64,000 nucleotides of DNA from a virus, in IMG/VR virus record IMGVR_UViG_3300002461_000876, one strand, 5' to 3'. Shown here one piece after another: positions 13,841-63,998 of the stretch (position 1 is its first letter; each line of letters begins with the position of its first letter). The translations under genes were made by a program, and so were the position numbers. The notes under the pieces are model-generated. The model was not told where the DNA came from. It was given only the letters and a program-made list of their open reading frames with translations, and ran no database searches.

Positions 13841-14095
13841 CTAGTTTGAGATCGAGCGACGTGTTACGGAACAGCCACGCTCATGGAGAACAGTGTCTCC
13901 GCACTCCGGGCATGCGAGCCGAGGTCCCGGAGGCGGTGGATGCGGAAGATCCACGAACGGCGGGTGATACTCGCACGCCTCGCAGAAGCCACAGTCATCG
14001 CAGAATGCATCGGCGTGGCAGCTCGGGCACCGCTGCCCACGCCGATGCAGGATGACGCGCATGCCGTCGGCGCGAAGCCTTGTCTTGGTGGCCAT
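13841..14095 (-). CDS. Small Cys-rich Zn-finger protein
   Basis: CPSC, CDDC, CEAC, CPEC motifs in 84 aa. Confidence 0.5.
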   Translation of the reverse strand: MATKTRLRADGMRVILHRRGQRCPSCHADAFCDDCGFCEACEYHPPFVDLPHPPPPGPRLACPECGDTVLHERGCSVTRRSISN

Positions 14096-14215
14096 GCCGA
14101 CGATCGTCTGCAAGATGGCGGGAAACCACAAGGCCGCAGAGAGACTTCCGTTTTCGGCAATCTTTTCAATTCGGTGGCGCACTGCCACGTGCGCGATCGC
14201 CCATGTGCGCGCGGC

Positions 14216-14386
14216 CTACTTCTGCTTGGGCGTGTCCCACCAGGCGGACTTGCACTTGGGGCAGATCCGGGGCGCGTCGGCCTTCGCGGTCTTCTTCGCC
14301 TTCGTCGCGCGAGGCGTCCGGGCGATCCACTCGTGCCCGCACCGCTCGCACCGGTAGCCGGGAACCTTGATCGTGATCTCCGCCAT
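14216..14386 (-). CDS. Small Zn-ribbon protein divergent from the transposase
   Basis: MAEITIKVPGYRCERCGHEW...RICPKCKSAWW, 56 aa. Confidence 0.7.
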   Translation of the reverse strand: MAEITIKVPGYRCERCGHEWIARTPRATKAKKTAKADAPRICPKCKSAWWDTPKQK

Positions 14387-14394
14387 CACGCTGG

Positions 14395-14443
14395 AGCATA
14401 CGGTGACGACCAACCTTGTCAAGTTTACCGGAATAAGTATACC
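14395..14443. promoter_or_regulatory. Overlapping divergent sigma70-like promoters
   Basis: Minus strand TTGACA-16 nt-TATGCT (14422 to 14395); plus strand TTGTCA-16 nt-TATACC (14416-14443). Confidence 0.5.
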
Positions 14444-14464
14444 TTCATCGGACGTCGGAGCAGC

Positions 14465-15661
14465 ATGCAGGACGAGCGACAGCAGAAGGGCCTCCAGATC
14501 GCCCGAGCGAAGCGGATCAAGAAGGCCGCCGGCAAGCTGTGGGTCGTCCCCTCGCAGAGCCACGCCGGGACCTACGTCGTCAACGTGGCGATCGGCACGT
14601 GCACGTGCCCGGACCACGAGACGCGCGACGTCAAGTGCAAGCATCTCTGGGCCGTTGAGTACGTGCGCCATCGGGTCCTCAACCCCGACGGCACCAAGGT
14701 CGAGACCGAGGCACTCCGCGTCACGTACACGCAGAACTGGCCCGCCTACCACGCGGCGCAGTGCGCCGAGCAGGAGCAGGTCCAGCTTCTCCTTCGGGAC
14801 CTGTGCGAGCAGATCGTCCAGCCGCCGCACCACGGTCGCGGTCGACCGCCGGTGCTCCTCGCCGACGTCGTGTACGCCGCGACGTTGAAGATCTACAGCG
14901 GCGTCTCGGGGCGCCGCGCGACGACCGAGATCAAGGAGTGCGCGACCAAGGGGATGATCGAGCACGCACCCTGCTACAACACGATCTTCAACTACCTCGA
15001 CAAGCCCGAGCTGACGCCGCTGCTCACGGGGATGATCGAGCAGTCCGCCACGCCGCTACGGGCGGTCGAGCGGGACTTCGCGGCGGACTCTACGGGATTC
15101 TCCACCTCGGTCTACCGCCGCTGGTACGACCACAAGTACGGCCGCGAGATGAAGGAGCACACGTGGCTCAAGGCGCACGCCATGATCGGCGTCGTCACCA
15201 ACGTCGTGACCAGCGTCATCGTCACGCCGGGCGACGCCCACGACGCGCCCGAGTTCCCGGCTCTCGTCGCCGCGACCGCGCGCGGGTTCGAGGTGGCGGA
15301 GGTCTCGGCGGACAAGGCGTACCTGTCCCATGCCAACCTCGCCGCGGTCGAGGCGGCCGGCGGCAAGCCGTACATCCCCTTCAAGTCCAACTCGACCGAA
15401 CGCGGATCGCCAGCATGGGAGCGCCTGTTCCACCTCTTCGCCATGAACCGGCCCGAGTTCCTCGCCCACTACCACAAGCGGAGCAACGTGGAGGCCACCT
15501 TCTCGGCGATCAAACGGAAGTTCGACGGCTCGATCCGGTCGAAGCGGTACGACGCCCAGGTCAACGAGATCCTCTGCAAGTTCCTCTGCTACAACCTCGC
15601 GACCCTGGTGCACGCGATGTTCGAGCTCGGCGTCAAGCCGACCTTCGCCAAGGTCGCCTAG
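14465..15661 (+). CDS. DDE transposase (IS5/IS903-like) with N-terminal SWIM Zn finger
   Basis: SWIM CTCPD...CKHLWA; AADSTG, SADKAY and YHKRSNVEATFSAIKRKF catalytic motifs; 398 aa from ATG 14465. Confidence 0.92.
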   Translation: MQDERQQKGLQIARAKRIKKAAGKLWVVPSQSHAGTYVVNVAIGTCTCPDHETRDVKCKHLWAVEYVRHRVLNPDGTKVETEALRVTYTQNWPAYHAAQCAEQEQVQLLLRDLCEQIVQPPHHGRGRPPVLLADVVYAATLKIYSGVSGRRATTEIKECATKGMIEHAPCYNTIFNYLDKPELTPLLTGMIEQSATPLRAVERDFAADSTGFSTSVYRRWYDHKYGREMKEHTWLKAHAMIGVVTNVVTSVIVTPGDAHDAPEFPALVAATARGFEVAEVSADKAYLSHANLAAVEAAGGKPYIPFKSNSTERGSPAWERLFHLFAMNRPEFLAHYHKRSNVEATFSAIKRKFDGSIRSKRYDAQVNEILCKFLCYNLATLVHAMFELGVKPTFAKVA

Positions 15662-43624: not shown

Positions 43625-43812
43625 GCCTTGTGATCCATCAGGATCTTGGACGCTCCCGCAACGAAACGCTGCGCTGCGTCCATCGCACACCTCAGGTTCG
43701 CGAGCGCTTCATCGTCAGTCTTGGACGACTCTGCGTCTTCCATGTTGTTCACAACTGCGTCGGCTTCGTCACGCAGTCCGGCGTTGCTGATCTCTTCGAT
43801 GGTTGTCGGCAT
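43621..43812 (-). CDS. Small helical hypothetical protein
   Basis: Directly downstream of hairpin leader A. Confidence 0.6.
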   Translation of the reverse strand: MPTTIEEISNAGLRDEADAVVNNMEDAESSKTDDEALANLRCAMDAAQRFVAGASKILMDHKA

Positions 43813-43816
43813 CGTA

Positions 43817-43879
43817 TCTCTCCACGTCTTCGAGCCCGCACGCTCGGCCCAAGGTGGCTGCGTTACGGGCGGGCTCGAG
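43817..43879 (-). promoter_or_regulatory. Hairpin leader motif, copy A
   Basis: TCGAGCCCGCCCGTAACGCAG...CCGAGCGTGCGGGCTCGA-N-GACGTGGAGAGA ahead of ATG 43812. Confidence 0.8.
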
Positions 43880-44472: not shown

Positions 44473-44476
44473 GGTG

Positions 44477-44541
44477 GGTCTCTTCACGTCTTCGAGCCCG
44501 CACGCTCGGACCCAAGGGTCTGCGTTACGGGCGGGCTCGAG
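44477..44541 (-). promoter_or_regulatory. Hairpin leader motif, copy B
   Basis: Same motif ahead of ATG 44472. Confidence 0.8.
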
Positions 44542-49127: not shown

Positions 49128-49195
49128 TCCTCGAGCCCGCCCGTAACGCAGCCCCCTCGGGTCCGAGCGTGCGGGCTCGAGGACGTGGAGAGACC
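49128..49195 (+). promoter_or_regulatory. Hairpin leader motif, copy C
   Basis: 13-bp outer stem TCCTCGAGCCCGC/GCGGGCTCGAGGA; ATG at 49198. Confidence 0.8.
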
Positions 49196-49197
49196 TG

Positions 49198-49632
49198 ATG
49201 CCGACCAAGCCCAGCACCGACCCAGAGACCGCCGTGCGGGAGAAGAACAACTGGTGGAGAGACCCGAGGCCGACCAAGCCCAGCACCGACCCAGAGACCG
49301 CCTCGCAGGAGAAGAGCGGCTACCGCAAGTTCCGTCGACATGAAGTCGCCGCACGCTGGGCTTCCAACATCGGCCTCAGCCTCCTCTTGTTCGGACTCAT
49401 CGCGTCATCCGCAGGCGCCGATCAGATCGTGTCCCTGTGCTTCTTCGCCACAGGCGCCTCCATTCTCGCAGCCGGGCGAGTGATGGATGCCGAGCGGTTC
49501 GGAGGATACATCTCGATGATGCCTTTGCAACTTTCTCTCTTGCTCTTGTACTTCGGATTTGCCACCGGATGCTTCGCGGAGATCGCGGATCTCATTCGAG
49601 AGGATGGATCCACGACGGTGCCGACCGACTGA
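49198..49632 (+). CDS. Membrane protein with a duplicated N-terminal peptide
   Basis: PTKPSTDPETA twice; three hydrophobic segments. Confidence 0.65.
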   Translation: MPTKPSTDPETAVREKNNWWRDPRPTKPSTDPETASQEKSGYRKFRRHEVAARWASNIGLSLLLFGLIASSAGADQIVSLCFFATGASILAAGRVMDAERFGGYISMMPLQLSLLLLYFGFATGCFAEIADLIREDGSTTVPTD

Positions 49633-49643
49633 ACTTCTGGTCC

Positions 49644-49708
49644 CGAGCCCGCCCGTAACGCAGCCCACCCTTGGGCCGAGCGTGCGGGCTCGATGACGTG
49701 GAGAGACC
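49644..49708 (+). promoter_or_regulatory. Hairpin leader motif, copy D
   Basis: Same motif; ATG at 49711. Confidence 0.8.
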
Positions 49709-49710
49709 CG

Positions 49711-50616
49711 ATGCGAAAGAACAAGTACTTCCTCGCCATCCTCATCGCTGCGTGCGAAATGCCCACCGAGGGCATCCCCATCGAGGAGAGCAGCAGTTCG
49801 ACCAGCGAAGACCTGGAGACCACGATCACGACCAGCGTATCCGGGTCGTCCACGATCACCTCGACGTCGATCACGACCAGCGACCAGGAGGGTTCGGAGT
49901 CGAGCGAGTCGACCGATGATGGCTCGGGATCCGACTCGAGTTCCGGATCCTCGGAAACCGGTGAGCCCGTCGAGCCCAAGAGCTACGCCCTGGCCTTCGA
50001 CGGAGGTCTCGCGATCTCGGGTCCGACCAACATCGTCAACTTCGACGGTGACCCCTTCACGATCGAGATGTGGGTTCGGATCTCCGGCGACCTGCAAGGC
50101 GTCCTCTTCGACACCACGGTGACCGTCCCGGGCCCGAACGGCATGACGCTGGTCCGCGACCCCGCCTGGACTTCGACCAACGACGTCGTTTTCTACGACT
50201 TCGGCACGAACCCGCCCACCCAGCTCGGTGGCATGGATCCCGGGGTCGTCGCTCCGGGATGGCACCACGTCGCCTTCGTCCACTCCGGGTCCGCGATCAA
50301 GATGTGGGTCGACGGGAGCCTGGCCGCGACGCAGATCGTGGAGGTCGTGTCGGACAACGCCTCGGCTCCGATCGCGATCGGGACGCAGCCCACGACCCCG
50401 TTCGTTCCGTTGCGAGGCTTCGAGATCGACGAGCTCCGGATCTCGGTCGACGCCCGCTACGATGCCCCGTTCATCCCCCAGAGCCCCATGGGATCCGACG
50501 GCGCATCGCTGCACTGGACCTTCGACGAGGGCCAAGGTACTTCGGCGTCGGACTCGGTCTACGGGCTCGAGCTCGAGCTTTCCAATGAGGGCATCGACTG
50601 GATCGAGGTCGAGTAG
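49711..50616 (+). CDS. Lipoprotein with Ser/Thr linker and LamG/concanavalin A-like domain
   Basis: LIAAC lipobox; FTIEMWVR, WHHVAFV, MWVDG, IDELRIS, HWTFDEGQG. Confidence 0.85.
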   Translation: MRKNKYFLAILIAACEMPTEGIPIEESSSSTSEDLETTITTSVSGSSTITSTSITTSDQEGSESSESTDDGSGSDSSSGSSETGEPVEPKSYALAFDGGLAISGPTNIVNFDGDPFTIEMWVRISGDLQGVLFDTTVTVPGPNGMTLVRDPAWTSTNDVVFYDFGTNPPTQLGGMDPGVVAPGWHHVAFVHSGSAIKMWVDGSLAATQIVEVVSDNASAPIAIGTQPTTPFVPLRGFEIDELRISVDARYDAPFIPQSPMGSDGASLHWTFDEGQGTSASDSVYGLELELSNEGIDWIEVE

Positions 50617-53198: not shown

Positions 53199-53510
53199 TT
53201 CATGGAGCAGGCCCTGGAGCAGTTCCTGGACGTTCTCTCGTCGATCTTCGAGCACGGCACGCACAGCTTCTCGCGCATACCTCCAGTGTGGAAGATCTTT
53301 CGCGATGGGTACGGTGAGACGGATCCATGCGAGAAGGATTCCGATGTGGAGCGATGCGGCGATGCCCGGGCTGGCGATCCATGCCAAGACAGCGTCACAC
53401 TCCTGTCTCGACTGTGAATCCATGACAAGATCGAAGATCTCGTCGAACACGACGTCGACTTCGTTCTCACTCTTGGCAGCGAGAAGACGCTCCGCCAGCG
53501 CCGGAGTCAT
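53175..53510 (-). CDS. Hypothetical protein
   Basis: ATG 53510 overlaps the fcl stop. Confidence 0.55.
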   Translation of the reverse strand: MTPALAERLLAAKSENEVDVVFDEIFDLVMDSQSRQECDAVLAWIASPGIAASLHIGILLAWIRLTVPIAKDLPHWRYAREAVRAVLEDRRENVQELLQGLLHELSLVDAT

Positions 53511-54448
53511 CGGACCATTCCATCCGAACGACGGGACTGGATCGCGCGGTACTCCTGGATCGTCTTCTCGACACCTTCTCGCAGCGAGATCTTCGGCGAC
53601 CATCCCAGTTCTCGGATCTTCGAAGAGTCCAGGATCTTCCTGGGCATGCCGTCAGGCTTCGACTCGTCCCATTCGATCAGTCCGCGATACCCCGTCAGCT
53701 CTGAGACAAGCTCCGCGAGCTGCATGATCGTGACCTCGACGCCAGATCCGACATTGATCGGCGCATCGTCATCGTAGTCCCTCAGCGCAACGGCGACGGC
53801 ATCTGCGAGGTCGTCGACGTGGAGGAACTCGCGGAACGGAGTCCCGGTGCCCCAGAGCGTCACCGGCCCACCGTTGATCCTGGCGCCCTCGAACTTCATG
53901 ATCAGGGTCGGGAGCACATGGCTCGCGTCGAGACTGTACCGATCCTCCGGCCCGTAGAGGTTGGTTGGCATCACGCTGACGTAGCGGCGACCATACTCGC
54001 GTCGGTAGTACTGGCACAGGCGAAGCGTGGCGATCTTCGCGAGCGCGTACGCTTCGTTGGTCGGCTCGAGCTCGCCCGTCAGCAACGCCTCGGGGCGCAG
54101 CGGCTGCTGGGCGGCGCGTGGGTAGATGCAGCTGCTGCCCAGGTTGACGAGGCGACCGATTCCGGCACAGTGGGCGGCGCTGACGACGTTCATGCCGATC
54201 AGCATATTGTCGAGCATGAACTCCACGGGAAGGGAGCTGTTGGCCCCGATCCCTCCGACCCTGGCCGCAGCGAGAACGACGGCGTCAGGACGGAGATCTC
54301 GGAGCACTCCCTCGACCTGGGACGCGACTCGAAGATCAGGGCCTCGGCCCTCCGGAGCTACGACCTCGTCCACGTACGGACTCTTGGATAGCCTCCGGAT
54401 CAGGGCCTTTCCCACCATGCCTCGATGCCCTGCGATGTAGACCCTCAT
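53507..54448 (-). CDS. fcl: GDP-L-fucose synthase
   Basis: [53 protein letters not shown]. Confidence 0.95.
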
Positions 54449-55440
54449 GTTGTCTCCTTCTCGGTCAGCTCGACGTCAGCGTCGACCATCAGATCGATGA
54501 GGTCGTCGAAATCCGTCCTCGTGCTCCATCCAAGGATCTCCTGCGCCTTGCTTGCGTCTCCGAGGAGAAGATCGACCTCTGAAGGGCGAACGAATCGTGG
54601 GTCTTCCACGACGTACTTTTTCCAGTCGAGACCGAGCTTTCCGAACGCCTTCTCGACCAGATCTCTCACCGAGTGAGTCTCTCCTGTCGCCAACACGTAG
54701 TCGTCGGGAGAATCCTGCTGCAGCATCATCCAGGCACCCTCGACGTAATCCGGAGCGTATCCCCAGTCCCTCTTCGCATCGAGGTTTCCGAGGCGAAGTT
54801 CAGACTGGATCCCTGCCGAGATCCTGGCCGCAGAGAGCGTCACCTTCCTCGTCACGTAGTTCTGGCCTCGCCTCGGCGACTCGTGATTGAAGAGGATCCC
54901 GTTCACGGCGAAGAGCCCGTAGGCTTCACGGTAGTTGACCGTCGTGTAGTAGGCGTAGGCCTTGGCGCACGCGTACGGGCTCCTGGGATGGAACGGCGTC
55001 GTCTCGCGCTGAGGAACCTCGTGGACCTTTCCGAACAGCTCCGAGCTCGACGCTTGATAGTAGCGACACGAACTCAAACCCGTGGCCCGGAGCGACTCGA
55101 GGAGCCTGGTCGATCCGACCGCAGTGGCCTCGGCGGTGTACTCGGGAAGATCGAAGGAAACCCTCACGTGGGCCTGAGCTGCGAAGTTGTAGAGCTCATT
55201 CGGCTGCGAGACCTCGATCGCCCTCCTGAGGCTCGAGGAGTCGCAGAGATCGCCGTAAAGAAGCGTGAGCTTAGGATCGTCCGGATCGAGCAGATGGGCG
55301 ATGTGCTGAGTCCGTAGCGTGGCCCCTGGTCTCACGAGGCCATAGACATCGTATCCCTTGCGGATCAGGAGCTCGGCCAGGTAGGACCCGTCCTGGCCGG
55401 TGACACCGGTGATCAGCGCTCTCTTCTTGTCGCCAGGCAT
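54445..55440 (-). CDS. gmd: GDP-mannose 4,6-dehydratase
   Basis: [53 protein letters not shown]. Confidence 0.97.
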
Positions 55441-55442
55441 CG

Positions 55443-56630
55443 TCAGAGGACCTCGTCGTTGATCCAGACGATGATCACGTCCTCGACCAGATCGTCATGG
55501 TTCGGATCCATGTACAGATCGACGTGTCCGTAGTCGGGCGTGAAGTGATCTTCGACATCGAAGGGGCTGGTCGACGTCAGGTTGACCTGGTCCATCATCC
55601 ACGGACCCATGCCTCGACCGCTCTCGAGCAACAGCACAGGCTCGTCGTAGACGTCGAGGTTGTCGACGAACTCATCATCGCCGCCGAGAGAGCAGTTGGC
55701 GTCTCTGATCTTGCGGATCGATGTGTAGTCCATGAACGTGGACGAGATGTTCCCGAACACGCGCTCTTCCGATCCGTAGAGGAAGGCGTCTGCGATGACA
55801 TCGCCTCGGACCAAGGAGAAGTTTGGTACCGCCGACGTGACGGGGCTCGGCGGTGGGGCATCGAGCAGGGCGATCACGAGCTGATGGAATGCCGGATCGA
55901 CCTGCGCCAGCGCGACGAGCATCTTCTGCTGCTGAGTCGATGTGTCGTAGACAATCCCCGACCCGAGCATGATGTCGAGGTCGTCGCAGATCGACGCGTT
56001 GGTCTGGATCACGTCGTCGTCGTCCGACCACATCGCGGATTCCCACAGCGCCAGGCCTCCGAAACTGTGGGGCCTACGATCCGCCATGGCGATCGCCATG
56101 GCACTTCCGTACGACAGACCGCCCGGGACAACCTTCTTCCACGGGTGACGATCCTTGATCCGATCGACGATGTAGAGCGCGTCATCGACGCTCGATTCCA
56201 GGCCCCAGTCTCCGATCGCGGAGCAGTCGACCACGAGGCCCTCGCACTGGCCGGCAGAGATCCCCGCCTCTCGAGGCGTGTACCCCCACACCTCGATACC
56301 CTCGCTTGCGAGTCTTCCCGCGAACGAAGACGACAGATCGTCATCCTCGTCGAAGGTGTACGTCGCGAATGTCGCAGCGAGCGGAGGAAGGGCGAGGAAG
56401 ACCGCTCGCGTCGGCTCGCCGATCTTCTTGACTCGATGCATCGTGAAACGATCCAGGGAGTCGCACCCGTCCTGCACGACCGTATCGGTCTGGACGTAGC
56501 CATCGTTCACGTCGATGTCGATGGAGACGATGTGCCGTCCCCACCATGCGTGAGCATCGGTGCAGAGAAGGGCGAGGATGGTGAACGTGATCGCGGCGAG
56601 AGAGGCTCTCATGCTCCTGATTTCCTTCAT
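55443..56630 (-). CDS. Secreted alpha/beta hydrolase
   Basis: Signal peptide (..AHA); GLSYG nucleophile elbow; YGHVD catalytic His region; start may be 56612. Confidence 0.75.
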
Positions 56631-56647
56631 GGGTGATCCTGGCGCGG

Positions 56648-57031
56648 ATGATACCCGCTCTTTCGACCCGCCCCAAGTACGAGGCTCACGTCTCACTTGC
56701 TCAAGATCAAAGCGCGCCACTGGCACTGGATCCTGCTCTTCCGACCCGATACGAGTCACGGAGATCCTGCGCGAATGCGAGATGTTCGGGCCCTGGAACT
56801 GGGTCCTGCTCTTCCGACCCGATACGAGGAGGCGTCCCACGAGACTGAGTGGGGCAACACAGACTGACACTGGATCCTGCTCTTCCGATCCGGTACGATG
56901 GTCTTCAATCGTCGACCCCACCTGGCACTGGGTCCTGCTCTTCCGACCCGGTGCGAGCCGATCTTGGCCGAGCCATGCGGGTGAATACTGGGCTCCTGGC
57001 ACCGGATCCTGCTCTTCCGACCCGGTACGAG
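56648..57031 (-). CRISPR. CRISPR-like array: five 36-nt repeats plus one degenerate terminal copy; no cas genes in window
   Basis: Repeats at 56720-56755, 56793-56828, 56864-56899, 56922-56957, 56996-57031 (plus consensus CTGGCACTGGATCCTGCTCTTCCGACCCGGTACGAG); degenerate copy ends at 56683; unique spacers of 36, 37, 35, 22 and 38 nt. Confidence 0.65.
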
Positions 57032-57067
57032 GTGAGGCCTCGGTCTTGCGTGCGTTGCTCCATTCGT

Positions 57068-57095
57068 CTCGCGTCGGATCGGAAGCTCAGGACAC
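57068..57095 (-). ncRNA. Inverted partial repeat (anti-repeat)
   Basis: CTCGCGTCGGATCGGAAGCTCAGGACAC matches the reverse complement of the adjacent repeat at 20/28, 36 nt after the last repeat. Confidence 0.5.
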
Positions 57096-57274
57096 TTCCC
57101 CGTTCGCAGATAGCCACCTCGATCCGAAGATTCGGGGCGAGGTTTGACGGCACTCTCCGGGGGCATCACATCGGGCATGCCCTGCCCTAGACCAGCTCGA
57201 TGCCGGCGACGTCGACCCTGCCACGGATCGGCATCGCTCGGCAAGGAAAAGTTTCCGAACCGGTCAGGTGAGTT

Positions 57275-57784
57275 CTAGCTTCCAAGGAGCGGGGATCGAA
57301 TGATCATGTCGTAGCAACCCGTCGCATCTCCAGCGAACCGATTCCTCTCCCAGTGAGCTTCCAGGATCAGGAAGCCTCTCGCCATGGCCCATTCCAGTAC
57401 GTCTCCGACCGGAACGAAGGCCCACGGCTCTGGCTCGTGATGCTGATTTCCTTCCGCTCCCCAGCTCAGCAGAAGTGTCCCGCCTGGCTTCAACCACTTC
57501 ATGTTGTGGTCCAGCGAATCTCTCCAGTTCGGGTCGTGCTCGAGCATCGACGTGCAGACGATGCAGGAGAACAGCTGGAAGAACCCTGTCTGATTCGCAT
57601 CGCAGACGAGGTCGACGCCGGGTCCCGCAGTTCGATCGACGCCGACGTACAGATCGGATGACAGGTACAGCCTCGCCGATCCGTTGTAGTCGAACGATCC
57701 TAGCTCGAGGATCCCGCCGAACCTCCAGAGGTGGCCGTAGGTCAACTGTGCGTAAGTGAGCCACTCTCGGTTGCCCTGATGCAT
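57275..57784 (-). CDS. Class I SAM-dependent methyltransferase
   Basis: ILELGSFDYNGS, YVGVD...GPGVDLVCDA, TSMLEHD. Confidence 0.85.
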   Translation of the reverse strand: MHQGNREWLTYAQLTYGHLWRFGGILELGSFDYNGSARLYLSSDLYVGVDRTAGPGVDLVCDANQTGFFQLFSCIVCTSMLEHDPNWRDSLDHNMKWLKPGGTLLLSWGAEGNQHHEPEPWAFVPVGDVLEWAMARGFLILEAHWERNRFAGDATGCYDMIIRSPLLGS

Positions 57785-57795
57785 GGATCTGGATC

Positions 57796-58632
57796 CTAGA
57801 TCTTGAGGAAGGTTCCGTCTCTTCGCATCATCCCGGACCACGTAGGACCAGGATCGGCCCACGATCGACGATATCTCCGGAAGGGAACCACTCGATCGAT
57901 GGCCTGGATTGGAACGACGAAGGATGGCTTCTCGTCGCCCTCCTCGAACCATTCCACGCTCCCGTGAGTGGAGTTCCAGAACGCGGTCGATCTGTCGTCG
58001 AGCCAGTCGACGAGACCGAACGACGACTGAACGATGGCCTGGGACATCGCGACTTGGCCATAGTAGCCAGAACGGTAGCCAGGATCGGAAGAGAACACAG
58101 GGGATCCGTTCCAACCCTTCCGGATCGATGCCCGGATCGACTCCGCTTCAACCGCTCCGATGAAGACAGTGGCGGTTGGAAGTGCTGGGGATGACTCCAA
58201 GCTCCAGTCCCAGACGGCCCCCGCGACCATGCCACTTGCTTGGATTCGATCGATCATCCACGCGTCGAAGTCGTCCGATGCGAAGATGTAGTCGTCCTCG
58301 ATCAAGATGAAGTGGGAGGCTTCGGGAGATGCTTCGATCGTGTCGACGTAGGCGCCGTAGCTCATGCCAACGTTGGGTCGAAGCATCACCCGGACCGGTA
58401 CACCTCGGATCTCTCGAGGGATCTCGTCCATCCACGACAGGTCGCCATGGGCGACCGTGCCCGTCACCGTCGTACTGTGAGCGATCGTGATCCGATCGAC
58501 GCTGTGGCTGAGTCGGGACAGGCTCTCGAGGTGCTGCTTCAGCAGCCACGATCTGTCGATCTCGTACTGCTGGGTCTTGTCGATACGAGACCCCATGTAC
58601 GATGCGATGACGTACTCGACGTGACGTGCCAT
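57796..58632 (-). CDS. GT-A fold glycosyltransferase-like protein
   Basis: NVGMSYGAY, FILIEDDYIF. Confidence 0.65.
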   Translation of the reverse strand: MARHVEYVIASYMGSRIDKTQQYEIDRSWLLKQHLESLSRLSHSVDRITIAHSTTVTGTVAHGDLSWMDEIPREIRGVPVRVMLRPNVGMSYGAYVDTIEASPEASHFILIEDDYIFASDDFDAWMIDRIQASGMVAGAVWDWSLESSPALPTATVFIGAVEAESIRASIRKGWNGSPVFSSDPGYRSGYYGQVAMSQAIVQSSFGLVDWLDDRSTAFWNSTHGSVEWFEEGDEKPSFVVPIQAIDRVVPFRRYRRSWADPGPTWSGMMRRDGTFLKI

Positions 58633-58639
58633 GAAGATC

Positions 58640-59563
58640 CTATCGGAGAAGGAACTCGGTCCCTGGGACGAGGTAGTCGTCGATGCATCGACGCGTTGTG
58701 AAGTTCATCAGCTCAGCTGTCGCGTCTCTCGAGATCCGAAACGCCTCCTCTTGGGACAGATCGACGATCTTGACGACGACTCCGTACGCCGTGTCGACGG
58801 ACGCTCTCCATGGAAGGACGATGCAGTTCTCGCTCGATAGCGGCCAGTGATCTCCATCCTCGGTGACGAGGACCGCCGACGTCGACGCCGCCTGGAACAG
58901 CCTCCACGTACTGTAGGATGCGACGTCGTAGTGATAGATGTTGAGGACGACCTTGGCTCGGTTGACCTCGCGAAGAAGTCCTGCGCCGAACAAGCTGCTC
59001 AGGTCACGGTATCCCTTCCCCATTCCGAACGAAGACAGCTTGGAGAAGAAATCAGGTCGCTTCCCTACCCGAGAACCGTAGAAGCACGCCTCGTCTCGCT
59101 TCTCGACTGCGAAGTCCGGAACTCCCATCGTGGACGGGTTCATTCCGTGCGGAAGAACGAAGGTTGGACGGCCGGTCTCTCGACCGATCTGCTGCGCCAT
59201 CCATGGTGTGTGGAGGCCGATGGCGTCCAGATGGACAGACCGGAGGAGGAGGCGATCGAAGTCCGCTCGGTGCTCAGGGGCGAGGCGGGTCAAGTCGGGG
59301 TCGTACGCCTCGAAGAACATCCCCGCGACGGCAGCTCGTCGATCGCTTGGGATCTCCGCGATCGTGTCCGGAGTCCAGTGCAGGAGCAGAGACCTCGAGT
59401 CACGAAGTTCCGCGAAGACTTCGTCGAAGCGATCCGCATCGTGAACTGAAAGCCAAGGAGTCGACTGATCGATGTAGGCGAGACGAAGATCGATGAAGGA
59501 TGCGTTGCGCGGGAAGAATACGGCGTAGTGCGCACCGGTCTGGGGATGAACGTCTCTGCCCAT
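58640..59563 (-). CDS. Glycosyltransferase (CgeB/YkvP-like GT-B)
   Basis: CFYGSRVGKR, LLREVNRAKVVLNI, RLFQAAS...LVTE. Confidence 0.7.
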   Translation of the reverse strand: MGRDVHPQTGAHYAVFFPRNASFIDLRLAYIDQSTPWLSVHDADRFDEVFAELRDSRSLLLHWTPDTIAEIPSDRRAAVAGMFFEAYDPDLTRLAPEHRADFDRLLLRSVHLDAIGLHTPWMAQQIGRETGRPTFVLPHGMNPSTMGVPDFAVEKRDEACFYGSRVGKRPDFFSKLSSFGMGKGYRDLSSLFGAGLLREVNRAKVVLNIYHYDVASYSTWRLFQAASTSAVLVTEDGDHWPLSSENCIVLPWRASVDTAYGVVVKIVDLSQEEAFRISRDATAELMNFTTRRCIDDYLVPGTEFLLR

Positions 59564-59584
59564 GCAGGACTCTTGCTTGTGGGT

Positions 59585-60136
59585 TCAGCGTGACCAGACG
59601 AGAAGATGCTGGTTCTGGTCGGGTGACTGCTCACGTGGAAGGTCCTTGGGACCCACCGCGATGTTCCACCGCGACTCGTCGAAGTCGCTGGGGTAGAGGT
59701 AGGACCGGTGGGTTTCCATCGGGTTGCCGCCATCGGGGCCCTGCTCGTGGATCCCGTGAGGCATCTCGGCGATGACCATGGCGCGGCTCGCCAGTGACTC
59801 GAGGATGCTCAGTGCTGTCGCCTTGTCGACATGCTCTGGGCCCTGAAGCCAGATCACCACGGTGGGATGATCTGCGTGGGGCACGGCAATGAAGTCCTGG
59901 ATCGTCGCCTGGAAGACCTTCGCCTCGGGATAGACCTGCCTTGCCCATTCGGCGTTGGGTGCGAACGGTTCGACGATCATCACGCGACCACCGGTGGCGA
60001 TGACATGCTGATGGAATGGCAACTCTCGGTGGGTCTTCACACCGACCAACAGAAGGGTTGCGCCGTCGAGGAATCCGAGATCGGAAAGGAACCGACGCTC
60101 GGCGAGATACCCTGTGTCCCAGACTTCGTACGTCAT
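59585..60136 (-). CDS. Methyltransferase-like protein
   Basis: LLLVGV, IVEPFAPNAEWAR, QATIQDF, GPEHVDK. Confidence 0.6.
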   Translation of the reverse strand: MTYEVWDTGYLAERRFLSDLGFLDGATLLLVGVKTHRELPFHQHVIATGGRVMIVEPFAPNAEWARQVYPEAKVFQATIQDFIAVPHADHPTVVIWLQGPEHVDKATALSILESLASRAMVIAEMPHGIHEQGPDGGNPMETHRSYLYPSDFDESRWNIAVGPKDLPREQSPDQNQHLLVWSR

Positions 60137-60140
60137 CGAT

Positions 60141-60908
60141 CTACGTTCCTGGGATCGAGCGTATCACGTCGATCCCGTAGTAGGGGTGGTCGTTCATGAT
60201 CTTGTCGATCTCGAGCTTGACCTCTGGAGGTGTCGGATGCGCCTTGTCCCATAGATTGTTGACGACCGGGTGGAGATCTGCGTCTTCCGGTTGCCACTTC
60301 ACGAACCGCTCACGCCAGCCAGGTCTGAGCTCGGCCTGGTGGCCGTGACACGTCCACTTGTACCCCATGAGGTTCTCGCACTGCGCGTATCCGAAGTGCA
60401 AGACCTTGAGGTGATCGGGAAGCCGCCCTGTCGACCCGGCGCGGTGCCTCTGGTCGACGACCCTGATCGGAGCGAACGCATCCAGGACCATGTAGTCGAA
60501 GGACCTCCAGAAGTTCCAGAAGTTCGCCATCCACGCATAGGCACTGTTGCTGTTGGCGACGTGATCCAACGCCATCTCAGCATGGCCCTCAGGCCAGATC
60601 TCGTCCGCGTCCACGACGAGGACCTGGCAAGGCCCGTGCTTCTGCTGGATCGTCCTCAGCGCTTCCTCTCGGTGATGATGCTCGCTGTTCCATCTCCCCT
60701 CGATCCAGTGGACCGGCTTGGTCGCGAATCGAAGCGCCTGAGCCTTGAGTTCCTCGCGGGTGTCCGGACATGGGTACGGAGACTTGAATCCGTAGCTTGG
60801 GACGTCCGTGTAGAAGATGTAGATCGCATCGACTGCGTCTTGAATCGATCGGATCGACCAGGCGAGGTACTCCTTGCCGTAGTGGATCGCGTAGTAGGCA
60901 ACCTTCAT
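60141..60908 (-). CDS. Glycosyltransferase family 2-like protein
   Basis: YLAWSIRSIQDAVDAIYI, LVVDADEIW. Confidence 0.75.
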   Translation of the reverse strand: MKVAYYAIHYGKEYLAWSIRSIQDAVDAIYIFYTDVPSYGFKSPYPCPDTREELKAQALRFATKPVHWIEGRWNSEHHHREEALRTIQQKHGPCQVLVVDADEIWPEGHAEMALDHVANSNSAYAWMANFWNFWRSFDYMVLDAFAPIRVVDQRHRAGSTGRLPDHLKVLHFGYAQCENLMGYKWTCHGHQAELRPGWRERFVKWQPEDADLHPVVNNLWDKAHPTPPEVKLEIDKIMNDHPYYGIDVIRSIPGT

Positions 60909-60927
60909 GACTTTCGTTCTCCTCTTT

Positions 60928-61440
60928 CTACCGTGACTCGGATCGGGCATGGATCATCGAGATGACCTCATCGACCACGATCCGATCGTCGACTCTCTCA
61001 GGGCCGACGCTGGTTCGAGATGTCTCGACGAAGCCCAGCTTGTGGTACAGGCTTCTCGCCGTTGCGTTACTCGCGAGGACCTCGATCCACGGGATCTTGC
61101 CCTGGATCTTCGACTCCGCAACCAAGAATCCGAACACCAGTCTCCCGTAGCCCTTGCCTCGGAATCCAGGATCCATCGCTGCCGTGAGTGCGGCGTAGTC
61201 GGACATCGGATCCCAGGCGATGAGTCCGTATCCGACCGTGACAGGGGATCCGACATCGACGGCGGACTCGACGAGGTAGAGCGTCTTCTCTCCGCTCTTC
61301 ACCCACCGATCGAACCACTGACGCTGCTGATCCTCGGTGATCATTTCTCGATGTCGTGTCATGTACATGCGAGCTGCGTTCCTGATCGGAAGCACAGACA
61401 TCGCATCTTCGACACAGGAAGCCTCTCGGATCGTAGTCAT
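60928..61440 (-). CDS. GNAT N-acetyltransferase (PseH-like)
   Basis: IRN...ITEDQQRQWF, FRGKGYGR, VLASNATARSLYHKLGF. Confidence 0.85.
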   Translation of the reverse strand: MTTIREASCVEDAMSVLPIRNAARMYMTRHREMITEDQQRQWFDRWVKSGEKTLYLVESAVDVGSPVTVGYGLIAWDPMSDYAALTAAMDPGFRGKGYGRLVFGFLVAESKIQGKIPWIEVLASNATARSLYHKLGFVETSRTSVGPERVDDRIVVDEVISMIHARSESR

Positions 61441-62534
61441 CGCCTCGCCGATCTGATCGTCGCGTCGATCACACGATCCATGTCGCTACTGGAGAGCCAC
61501 CAGCCTACCGGAATGGCGACCTGGTGCTTGGAGAAGTGGTCGAGTCCGGCCAGGTTGGGGCTGGCGATGGATGAGTTTCGGAACGCGTCGTGTTTGTCGT
61601 TCCTCGCATGGACTGGACTCGTGTCGATGCCCAAGTCCTTCATCTTGGAGGAGAAGTCCTCAACGTCATCCACGAGGATCGTGTAGATCCACCAGCTGCT
61701 CTCAGGATCCCATTTTGGCTCGATGATCCCGTTCATGCCGCCGAGCTCGAGGCATAGAGTTTTGGCGTTCGATCGGTGACGCTCGAGGATGTCGTCCAGG
61801 CCAACGGCGTTGGCGATTCCGATCGTCGCAGCAACGTCGTTCATGTGGTACTTGTAGCCGACCTCCTCGATGTTCTGCTCGCATCGAAAGGACTTCGATC
61901 CTCTTCGATCGAGGCCATACCACCGGAGAAGCCTGGCCCGATCCAGCTGATGATCGGGGACGCAGATCGCTCCTCCGTCGACCGTCGTCAGGTGCTTGAT
62001 CGCTTGGAAAGAGAAGCAGACGTAGTCCCCGCCGACTCCGCTTGCGACGTGGTGACCATCGATCGTGGTCCCAACCGCATGTGCAGCATCCTCGATGACC
62101 GGGATCCCGAAGGACTTGAGCGCTGCGTAGTCGCACGATCGTCCGCCCCAGTCGACCGCCATGATCGCCTTGACGTGATCGTTGATGTTCTTGCTGACGT
62201 CGATCGGATCCAGGTTTCCGTTCCACTTGTTGACGTCGCAGAACACAGGAGTCGCGCCTCGTCGAACGATCACGCCGTTGGTCGCGGTGCATGTCTGGGC
62301 CGTCGTGATGACCTGGTCCCCGGGCCCGACCCCGCACAGATGAAGGGCAAGATCAAGAGCAGCGGTTCCACTGCATATGGTGAGAGCTGGTCTTCCGAAT
62401 CGATGCTCGAGCACTTCTTCGAACTGATCGACTCGAGGACCTTGACCGATGTACCCGGACATCAGGACGCCCCGAACCTGATCCGGAACCTCCTCTCGCA
62501 TGTAGACCTTGAAGAGTGGGATGGTGATATCCAT
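61437..62534 (-). CDS. DegT/DnrJ/EryC1/StrS PLP sugar aminotransferase
   Basis: SGTAAL, IEDAAHA, FSFQAIKHLTTVDGG, GYKYHM. Confidence 0.93.
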   Translation of the reverse strand: MDITIPLFKVYMREEVPDQVRGVLMSGYIGQGPRVDQFEEVLEHRFGRPALTICSGTAALDLALHLCGVGPGDQVITTAQTCTATNGVIVRRGATPVFCDVNKWNGNLDPIDVSKNINDHVKAIMAVDWGGRSCDYAALKSFGIPVIEDAAHAVGTTIDGHHVASGVGGDYVCFSFQAIKHLTTVDGGAICVPDHQLDRARLLRWYGLDRRGSKSFRCEQNIEEVGYKYHMNDVAATIGIANAVGLDDILERHRSNAKTLCLELGGMNGIIEPKWDPESSWWIYTILVDDVEDFSSKMKDLGIDTSPVHARNDKHDAFRNSSIASPNLAGLDHFSKHQVAIPVGWWLSSSDMDRVIDATIRSARR

Positions 62535-62544
62535 TCGATTCCTC

Positions 62545-63333
62545 CTACAGAGCTGCGTCGATTTCGCTTCGGAACGTCCGGCGGACACAGAGCTCCTGAA
62601 ACAGAGCTTCGCCTCGGACCTGACGATCAGGAGACCGGATCAGATCCACTGTGGCGCTGATCAGGCCTTGGTAGGGAACGTGGACGATCGAACCATCATC
62701 GAGAGGGTAAGGATCCTGGATCGACTCGGAGACGATCGGAAGCGAGTAGGCTGCGGCGATGGCGAAGCGCAGAGGTGCGTAGACCGGAGCCTCATACTGC
62801 TGGACGTTGAGCATCACCTTCGAGCTTCGAAGGATCCGATCCCTGTCCTCGCCCCACGCATTCGGTCCCTCGATGAGTCCGGACAGCTTGAGGCCTTCGA
62901 CGATCGGAGATCGTCGACCCCAGACATAGCTCTGGTGTGTGAAGTCGAACTGGGTCGGAAGCGGATCGTTCCCGAATCCAGGATGAGAAGCCAGGCAGAC
63001 GTAGCGGAACGATGGATGCCGGGTCGCCGTCCATCGGTCACTGACCCAGATCTCGTCGACGCGCTGGATCATGCGATCGATCGATCCGTCGGTCAGTATC
63101 GGCGTCCCATCGAGACGTTCGAGGAACCACCAGATGATGATGGCTCGTCTCGATATGCATCGATCCAGGATCGGACCCATCTCTCCGTTGTTCGGCGTGA
63201 AGATGTAGACCGCGAACTTGTCCGGATCGATCTCGTCCACCCAACACGTCTCGTACCCGGAGAGTTCGACGAGCCTCCAGAAGTCGGAGTAGGAGTCGTA
63301 GGAGTGGCGAGTCTTCGCGAAGATCACGGTCAT
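62545..63333 (-). CDS. Glycosyltransferase-like protein (CgeB-like)
   Basis: WGEDRDRILRSSKVMLNV, RFAIAAAYSLPIVSE. Confidence 0.65.
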   Translation of the reverse strand: MTVIFAKTRHSYDSYSDFWRLVELSGYETCWVDEIDPDKFAVYIFTPNNGEMGPILDRCISRRAIIIWWFLERLDGTPILTDGSIDRMIQRVDEIWVSDRWTATRHPSFRYVCLASHPGFGNDPLPTQFDFTHQSYVWGRRSPIVEGLKLSGLIEGPNAWGEDRDRILRSSKVMLNVQQYEAPVYAPLRFAIAAAYSLPIVSESIQDPYPLDDGSIVHVPYQGLISATVDLIRSPDRQVRGEALFQELCVRRTFRSEIDAAL

Positions 63334-63998
63334 GTCCGAGAACCCCTCACCGCAGCGACGAGGGCTGCGAGTTCTTGGACTCGAACACTCCACGTGTGAT
63401 GAGATCTTGCGAGATCTGATCCCATCATGCCGATGTTCCTCAGGTCATCCCTTCGCGATGGTTCGATCCAGTGACGGATCTTCTCGACCAAGTCCTGGCA
63501 CGTGTCCCATGCGATGCAGTTCTCTCCGTCGACGAGTCCGAGGCCCTCTTGGTCCTCAAACCTTCGGACGAGAGTAGGAGTCCCACACGCCAAGGATCGG
63601 AAGAGGCGATCTGATGTGTATCGAGCAAGTCGGTTGGTCAACGAGATCGACACAGCCATCAGACTCTCTCGATACACCTTCCCGGAACTACGCTGAGGGA
63701 TGGACTCGGTCTTCGGACCCCATCCACCTCCGTAGATCCCAGATCTTGGGATGGATCGAAGGGCGTTGACCACGTCCCGGCGAAGCTGGGCCTCGCTTCC
63801 CGGAAGCGCATCGTAGCGACGATGATAGTCTTGCCCCATGAACACGACGTCATGGCGAGCGCCCCACTGTTCGTCTCCGGGGTGGTACCGGTCTTCGTCG
63901 TATCCGATCTGAAGGTAGGCAGCGTTCTCCATGCCGCGCTCACGATGGAGACGCACCTGTCCTGTGCCGGTGAAGAGCATCAGATCAGCGTGTGGCCA
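63330..63998 (-). CDS. Glycosyltransferase (CgeB/YkvP-like), 5' end beyond the window
   Basis: DVVFMG, YTSDRLFRSLACGTPTL; frame open to the window edge. Confidence 0.8.
   Translation of the reverse strand, partial: WPHADLMLFTGTGQVRLHRERGMENAAYLQIGYDEDRYHPGDEQWGARHDVVFMGQDYHRRYDALPGSEAQLRRDVVNALRSIPRSGIYGGGWGPKTESIPQRSSGKVYRESLMAVSISLTNRLARYTSDRLFRSLACGTPTLVRRFEDQEGLGLVDGENCIAWDTCQDLVEKIRHWIEPSRRDDLRNIGMMGSDLARSHHTWSVRVQELAALVAAVRGSRT

Follow-up and report, generated by a model that had tools for sequence, protein, structure and literature searches.

The element at positions 57068–57268 of the 64,000-nucleotide stretch of phage-like DNA analyzed here (the window) is, as judged by sequence comparison, a tracrRNA on the minus strand, with a conserved structured scaffold and a cognate anti-repeat. 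It very probably belongs to a compact TnpB-derived type V CRISPR system, similar to TranC and V-U systems, that is carried by a jumbo phage. An initial annotation of this site had described the anti-repeat and proposed a cis-encoded tracr-like element, a single-guide-like element or a processing switch. An anti-repeat just upstream of an array is the textbook arrangement of type V systems, and the finding as originally worded is ordinary in kind. Absent from that description was a conserved scaffold of about 175 nt situated 5′ of the anti-repeat. It appears to retain the TnpB omegaRNA core with little change but split into two parts, and the lineage would offer a new test case for the idea that Cas12 arose by RNA splitting.

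The array and the region directly upstream of it contain the following features, listed in the direction of a minus-strand transcript.

57068–57095, minus strand: anti-repeat, pairing with nt 1–28 of the repeats
57032–57067, minus strand: constant linker of 36 nt, read as a truncated array leader, with the motif GCACGCAAG at 57045–57053
56996–57031, minus strand: repeat 1 (leader-proximal), 36 nt, RNA 3′ end UGCCAG
56958–56995, minus strand: spacer 1, 38 nt, no target found
56922–56957, minus strand: repeat 2, 36 nt
56900–56921, minus strand: spacer 2, 22 nt, shortened
56864–56899, minus strand: repeat 3, 36 nt
56829–56863, minus strand: spacer 3, 35 nt
56793–56828, minus strand: repeat 4, 36 nt, 3′ end mutated at the pseudoknot positions
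56756–56792, minus strand: spacer 4, 37 nt
56720–56755, minus strand: repeat 5, 36 nt
56639–56683, minus strand: degenerate sixth (trailer) repeat with insertions, marking the leader-distal end of the array

The geometry given in the initial annotation was reproduced. Between the end of the last repeat at 57031 and the inverted copy there are exactly 36 nt. On the minus strand the anti-repeat pairs with nt 1–28 of this nearest repeat at 23 of 28 positions, of which 20 are Watson-Crick and three are G-U pairs, and the duplex energy is −38.7 kcal/mol on the minus strand versus −29.3 kcal/mol on the plus strand. The segment is the best ungapped inverted match to the repeat in the 64 kb (20/28); among 126,906 control positions outside the locus, none reached 20/28 and one reached 19. 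It is also the top 28-mer of the window by duplex energy, but narrowly (−39.3 versus −39.1 kcal/mol elsewhere); the weight of the evidence lies in its position, conservation and covariation and not in energy. Folding of the region 56990–57270, a check suggested in the same annotation, bore the pairing out, with z = −4.0 on the minus strand and −0.7 on the plus strand. In the ensemble, 22 of the 28 anti-repeat positions are paired at p ≥ 0.79, and the hairpin of repeat 1 itself is displaced. Because the complementarity spans the loop of the palindromic repeat, the inverted copy is not a decayed direct copy. The hairpins of the repeats contain 28 G-U wobbles if transcribed from the minus strand and 13 if transcribed from the plus strand. 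Minus-strand transcription is favored by this bias, by the degenerate repeat at the distal end and by the orientation of the flanking genes.

The displacement of the repeat 1 hairpin would suit a pairing between leader and repeat with no role beyond controlling how the first crRNA is processed, as known from some type II arrays, and an inverted repeat might also arise by chance or decay. We hold both to be very improbable, since the anti-repeat lies within a conserved, covarying scaffold tied to TnpB-family genes and varies in step with the repeat in five other systems, and no type II gene was found. The type II processing switch has no support: neither Cas9 nor Cas6 was found, no gene of Cas9 size is present in the window or in the other loci, and the window, which is phage-like, yielded no cas gene. 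The architecture is that of type V, with the scaffold, the anti-repeat, a repeat 5′ of the spacer and a free repeat 3′ end; the minus-strand polarity places the repeat 5′ of the spacer, which is not the type II arrangement.

The predicted tracrRNA and the gene preceding it comprise the following features.

57275–57784, minus strand: methyltransferase-like gene, whose stop codon lies about 7 nt before the scaffold and which is the likely source of read-through transcription
57068–57268, minus strand: predicted tracrRNA of about 200 nt, an omegaRNA-like scaffold ending in the anti-repeat, with its ends placed by homology boundaries
57190–57265, minus strand: 5′ stem formed by 57256–57265 with 57190–57199 and enclosing two hairpins, from the minimum free energy structure and without covariation support
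57173–57187, minus strand: conserved hairpin with a covarying 5-bp stem and the invariant loop GGGCA at 57178–57182
57098–57163, minus strand: long-range 4-bp helix formed by 57160–57163 with 57098–57101, closing a short helix and a variable stem-loop at 57117–57142

In an alignment of nine scaffolds, 99% of the cells in the three helices are paired, and compensatory changes occur in 6 of 12 pairs, including 2 of 4 in the long-range helix and 2 of 3 in the short helix. The covariation value is 0.35, compared with 0.13 for shuffled and at most 0.12 for slid alignments, and it lies above all 500 shuffles and all slid controls. As four of the nine aligned scaffolds are near-identical, this support is moderate. 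The 5′ stem region of the window (57190–57265) is longer than the simple 5′ hairpin of the relatives. The curated models of Rfam gave no match at the gathering score, nor up to an E value of 10.

The GGGCA loop faces the UGCCA at repeat positions −6 to −2, and the predicted pairing has the register of the ISDra2 pseudoknot. The pseudoknot of ISDra2 involves scaffold positions −6 to −2, with a non-canonical G·A at −2 (PMC10097598). In this register, 17 of 21 repeats are complementary to the loop, two contain a wobble and two are broken; the bases are invariant in the clade, so the pseudoknot shows no covariation. A GUGGCA loop near 57220 had also been considered as the pseudoknot partner and was rejected, as its hairpin is missing in the relatives and GGGCA is the conserved loop.

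In order, the scaffold elements are a hairpin (5-bp stem, 5-nt loop), a short helix, the GAA-purine-rich motif, the terminal stem and, last, bases complementary to the loop. The same order is found in the omegaRNA of L025, an IS-type locus with an ordinary D-E-D TnpB and an unsplit terminal stem, and in both RNAs the short helix closes just 5′ of the GAA-purine-rich motif. The pairing between loop and 3′ end is present in L025 with a sequence different from that of the window. This shared order and the ISDra2 register indicate that the last omegaRNA stem is divided here, with the anti-repeat as one arm and the repeat as the other. The terminal stem of the ISDra2 omegaRNA corresponds to repeat:anti-repeat 2 of Cas12f (PMC10097598), and by homology of position the anti-repeat at 57068–57095 is the predicted counterpart of both. 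The splitting of an omegaRNA into tracrRNA and crRNA defines TranC systems (PMC13565253). The proposal of a cis-encoded tracr-like element is thus strengthened by scaffold homology and covariation, and it can be made more precise as the anti-repeat of a type V, TnpB-derived tracrRNA.

A metagenome scan with the repeat located further arrays, each preceded by a copy of 57032–57268 that is 92–95% identical; scaffold copies with this identity are present in L018, L020 and L022. At least five distinct arrays without any spacer in common were found: the array of the window, L022:1674–2344 (about 3 kb past the end of the window), L020:9170–9974, one in L017 and one at the end of L018. Exact protein look-ups placed the window and the L020 locus on one 175-kb contig from an activated-carbon metagenome. 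L018, a different contig of that assembly, overlaps L017 by 76 identical bases and thus likely belongs to this phage. In contigs from two soil studies the cassette occupies this site too, with a different set of spacers; the one sequencing run labelled as RNA is probably DNA. A search of 185,579 species genomes found no array with this repeat, and scans of IMG/VR and GTDB with the repeat returned only chance single matches or adapter concatemers. The repeat core has 10–13 nt in common with an Illumina adapter; a sequencing-adapter artefact was ruled out, as the flanks differ and the locus is present in independent assemblies and studies. The L017 array contains a complete tRNA-Glu(TTC) gene (L017:377–449) between repeat remnants, possibly an insertion or the capture of an oversized spacer.

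Of the four mapped scaffold 5′ ends, three directly follow the stop codon of a gene in the same orientation. As a search for sigma-70 promoters found none, the cassettes are probably expressed by read-through. On the 3′ side, the cassette of the window is flanked by an alpha/beta-hydrolase gene, likely 55443–56612, which encodes 389 aa with a signal-peptide-like start. Gene callers stretch this ORF through the array (55443–57002, 519 aa), and other arrays of the clade are likewise covered by spurious ORFs. The cassette is situated inside a sugar-modification cluster (53507–63393) with a GDP-mannose dehydratase, a GDP-fucose synthase-like epimerase, a glycosyltransferase-like gene, a methyltransferase, a DegT aminotransferase and an acetyltransferase.

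The linker between anti-repeat and array is identical at 36 of 36 positions at three other junctions of the same phage and at 33 of 36 at a fourth. Its counterpart measures 112 nt in the L020 cassette and 147–150 nt in the relatives. The 9-nt motif of the linker, or a close form of it, is conserved across the protein clade, and the long leaders continue after it for another 100 nt, which the window-type linker has lost. The distance underlying the "spacer-sized loop" of the initial annotation is therefore correct, but the segment is not a spacer: it is constant among sister cassettes, 112–150 nt long elsewhere and marked by a clade motif, and its spacer-like length is a coincidence. By comparison with the long forms, the 36-nt linker is a leader with most of its length deleted.

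The anti-repeat captures repeat 1 almost completely in cis, and spacer 1 may therefore be served by a natural single guide. On this alternative the shortened cassettes are single guides in which tracrRNA, linker, repeat 1 and spacer 1 form one molecule, with the downstream repeats secondary, and they amount to a return to the omegaRNA state. In its favor, cis pairing predominates in the ensemble, four junctions carry the same deletion of most of the leader, and no terminator-like site was found between the anti-repeat and the array; refusion of tracrRNA and repeat is proposed for Cas12f derivatives in PMC10691335. Even so, we consider it rather doubtful, since the downstream repeats of the window keep their complementarity to the anti-repeat (21–24 of 28) and mostly also the UGCC end, as expected for use in trans. 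The leader motif is moreover retained in the linker, and in L057 it lies downstream of a terminator-like hairpin, where the array may start its own transcript. Long-leader, short-leader and detached forms are thus available side by side.

A gene for a TnpB-family protein of 430 aa (L020:924–2216) lies on the same contig, about 93 kb from the cassette of the window and 7 kb downstream of the L020 cassette. The protein scores as an RNA-guided TnpB above the cut-off (NF040570, 1e-69). It is below the cut-offs for the TnpB of IS605 and IS607, and far under those of the type V families (83 of 350 bits for C2c8 and 38 of 450 for Cas12f2). Its predicted model is closest to the TnpB of ISDra2 (TM 0.72) and ISFba1 (TM 0.69). 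On the 3′ side of the gene there is no scaffold, TnpA or IS end, and the next ORF overlaps its stop codon. An ortholog with 96% identity likewise has no scaffold behind the gene; one starts 2.9 kb further on.

The relatives of this effector form a clear group of 14 at 41–96% identity. Among them, the effectors of L049, L052, L053 and L055 are 47–60% identical to that of the phage. In L049, L052, L053 and L060 the gene, a homologous scaffold, an anti-repeat and an array are directly consecutive. L055 has the gene, scaffold and anti-repeat on a contig that ends in the first repeat, and in L050, L051 and L054 a scaffold behind the gene is cut by the contig ends. Scaffold homology behind these genes is significant by blastn (E 1e-6 to 1e-11) and nhmmer (1e-13). 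The arrays of L049, L052, L053 and L060 contain 6–14 repeats of 36 nt ending in UGCCAC. The repeats of the relatives are unlike that of the window in sequence, yet the length of 36 nt and the UGCCA end are kept. Cognate anti-repeat:repeat duplexes have energies of −34.6 to −50.1 kcal/mol, whereas combinations of the window with relatives give −13 to −31; for the L053 anti-repeat, two related repeats are slightly better partners than its cognate repeat. Conservation in homologous arrays, another check named at the outset, was therefore found in five relatives as a scaffold with an anti-repeat that follows the repeat. As the anti-repeat tracks the repeat type, anti-repeat, array and protein form one system.

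The repeats within an array are not equally homogeneous. All five differ in the window (5/5), as do all seven in L052 (7/7); 11 of 13 are distinct in L053, and 12 of 12 are identical in L049. Most differences in these four arrays preserve the hairpin. The unequal homogeneity raises the question of how spacers are acquired without cas1 and cas2, and the differences within arrays together with several shortened spacers could mean decay.

The effector clade is linked to arrays in L049, L052, L053, L057 and L060, to a first repeat in L055 and, in this phage, in trans. The L057 locus (L057:11250–13730) comprises a deep member of the clade (P0025, 510 aa) with an R-Q motif. It also has an omegaRNA-like core, a strong terminal hairpin with a U-tract, the 3′ arm of the hairpin resembling the repeat, the same leader motif and more than 20 irregular repeats ending in UGCCAC. 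An anti-repeat in L057 was not significant (−24.7 versus −20.8 ± 3.1). L057 may preserve an earlier stage of the omegaRNA split.

With 93 kb between cassette and phage gene, the cassettes might also serve a clade member encoded by the host, or act as decoys against it. Viral mini-arrays that borrow host effectors are known (10.1101/2023.03.03.530964), and the L049 and L053 relatives come from bacterial genome assemblies. However, the phage itself encodes an intact member of the clade, for which a relative has a 96% identical counterpart, the loci of the relatives are all among phage-like genes, and no such array was found in the species genomes scanned, which makes a host effector improbable. 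No member of the effector clade was found in IMG/VR or among GenBank phages. About 98 kb of the phage were examined, and a second effector gene or a host effector may exist in addition. The arrangement implies that phage arrays that look like orphans can come with a tracrRNA that serves an effector some 90 kb away, and a distant effector of this kind escapes CRISPR annotation based on gene neighborhoods. Jumbo phages with several orphan arrays have been published (PMC12607003).

The catalytic triad of the effector is D215-E308-Q409, where Q409 aligns with the catalytic D361 of ISDra2. RuvC-I D215, RuvC-II E308 and four zinc-finger cysteines are invariant across the clade. In the clade tree, from which rows outside 330–620 aa were left out and which was midpoint-rooted, a clade of 32 rows (support 97/91) has no Asp at the RuvC-III site and mostly Gln. 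Since the third catalytic Asp is replaced by Gln throughout the clade, binding or blocking is more likely than cutting, and we lean slightly towards a D-E-Q complex that binds DNA without cutting it. Mutation of any residue of the DED triad abolishes the nuclease activity of TnpB and Cas12 (10.1101/2023.11.30.569447).

The same RNA and protein could instead form an active nuclease with a rearranged RuvC site, serving as a weapon against phages and plasmids or in superinfection exclusion. We regard this as a possibility to be taken seriously without favoring it. A deep clade retains RuvC-I D, RuvC-II E and the C4 zinc finger, the full-length spacers (35–38 nt) turn over between strains, and CauTranC9, a TranC from a phage, is active with phages as its targets (10.64898/2026.03.27.714800). 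Conserved RuvC-III changes are argued in PMC10691335 to be compatible with activity. Against cutting stands, besides the mutational evidence, that Gln cannot supply the acidic ligand, and inspection of the protein sequence identified no compensating acidic residue. Whether RuvC-III-rearranged TnpBs cut DNA or merely bind it could be tested cleanly on this one conserved replacement of Asp by Gln.

In the reading we prefer, that of a binding complex, a minus-strand transcript, probably made by read-through, would fold into the omegaRNA-like scaffold. The anti-repeat would pair with nt 1–28 of a repeat, and the 3′ UGCCA of the repeat would close the pseudoknot with the GGGCA loop, so that a TnpB guide is rebuilt with the spacer as its 3′ guide. 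The repeat:anti-repeat duplex would be cleaved by a host RNase or by the effector, and the stand-alone 430-aa protein would be loaded in trans. The complex would bind DNA in a PAM/TAM-dependent manner and keep competing elements or host genes from being transcribed or replicated. The module of tracrRNA and array would have left the effector gene and been copied to at least five sites with different spacers, and at four junctions most of the leader would have been lost, leaving the 36-nt linker. If this holds, the protein is a natural 430-aa DNA binder with array-encoded guides and a candidate compact repressor. More tentatively, the phage may represent an undescribed lineage in which one stand-alone, non-cutting D-E-Q effector and mobile, amplified guide cassettes, mostly behind gene stops and partly re-fused as natural single guides, silence about twenty host or competitor targets.

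TranC systems, intermediates between transposons and CRISPR (Jin et al., Cell 2025), resemble, by the descriptions in PMC13565253 and 10.64898/2026.03.27.714800, the present system in a TnpB-sized effector without domain expansion, a split omegaRNA, 36-nt repeats and no adjacent cas1/cas2, and they resemble its relatives in an array downstream of the effector gene. CauTranC9 is, like this system, phage-borne (10.64898/2026.03.27.714800). The effector size of 430 aa falls within the range of TranC and TnpB-derived V-U proteins (about 300–600 aa), and comparison with L025 and ISDra2 suggests the split guide of these systems. The TranC members covered by these descriptions are active, whereas this clade has Gln for Asp in RuvC-III. 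With D-E-Q in place of an intact D-E-D triad, the system is not filed as TranC proper, while it appears to work like TranC and V-U. It further differs from TranC in an RNA module that is detached from the gene and amplified to at least five cassettes.

The putative type V variants V-U6 to V-U45 and the RuvC-III-rearranged (RIIIr) TnpBs (Altae-Tran 2023, PMC10691335) are CRISPR-linked TnpB derivatives without adaptation genes, as here, and RIIIr TnpBs likewise have a conserved RuvC-III substitution. For the largest RIIIr branch the main text gives His and not Gln, and it does not mention such RNAs. The clade may already bear a V-U or TranC number.

The IS200/IS605 TnpB of ISDra2 (PDB 8H1J; PMC10097598) has the closest fold (TM 0.72), the same scaffold order, the register of the pseudoknot predicted here and a 3′ guide. 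In contrast to ISDra2-type TnpB, the terminal stem is here split between anti-repeat and repeat, the guides come from arrays, there is no TnpA or IS end at the gene, and the third catalytic Asp is lost. The TnpA, IS ends and contiguous omegaRNA of an IS200/IS605 or IS607 element are thus not present. Stand-alone omegaRNAs in trans, described in PMC10691335, are a parallel for extra RNA copies that would serve one protein.

TldR (10.1101/2023.11.30.569447), Cas12m and Cas12c are non-cutting RNA-guided repressors with an altered RuvC triad, as here, and TldR is likewise TnpB-sized and phage-borne. TldR has one adjacent guide RNA, at least two degenerate motifs and a zinc finger that is often lost, whereas the present effector has a single changed residue and an intact zinc finger, and arrays and a tracrRNA replace the adjacent single guide. 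No fliC, oppF or csrA neighbors were found. Cas12m needs no tracrRNA; this system has one. Cas12f and Cas12n (V-F, V-N) share with it a tracrRNA of about 200 nt upstream of the array and a long repeat:anti-repeat stem, and they have a pseudoknot such as is predicted here, but the effector is under their family cut-offs, has 12–16% identity in fold matches, and the tracrRNA lies outside the gene. By the features listed, the system is not Cas12f, Cas12n, TldR, an IS-borne TnpB or type II. A literature search whose coverage left out most subscription papers found no RuvC-III Gln clade with a tracrRNA and no description of amplified tracrRNA-array cassettes.

No spacer targets were found in GenBank phages, PLSDB plasmids or the 98 kb of the phage, and spacer 1 had none in IMG/VR. 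Nor was a protospacer, PAM or TAM found. Matches of the 5′ seeds of the spacers to the phage were at the level of shuffled spacers. Spacer 1 of L052 (L052:3220–3255) shares 17 nt exactly with L020:16513–16529 (E 9e-4), including neither spacer end, probably by chance. Spacer 2 of L022 (L022:2010–2046) has 14 nt in common with the hairpin of the L020 long leader (L020:9723–9736), through chance or as a remnant of recombination.

Other features of the phage were noted in passing. A palindromic element of about 75 bp occurs at 43800–43878, 44476–44540, 49128–49207 and 49644–49714 of the window and at L016:1152–1233, each time directly 5′ of a GGAG or GAAG site resembling a ribosome-binding site and an ATG. 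It is probably a phage promoter, a regulatory leader or a gene-cassette recombination site. The window also encodes a DDE transposase with a SWIM zinc finger (13883–15661), and over its full length (1–64000) it contains 1059 GATC sites, compared with 225 expected from base composition.
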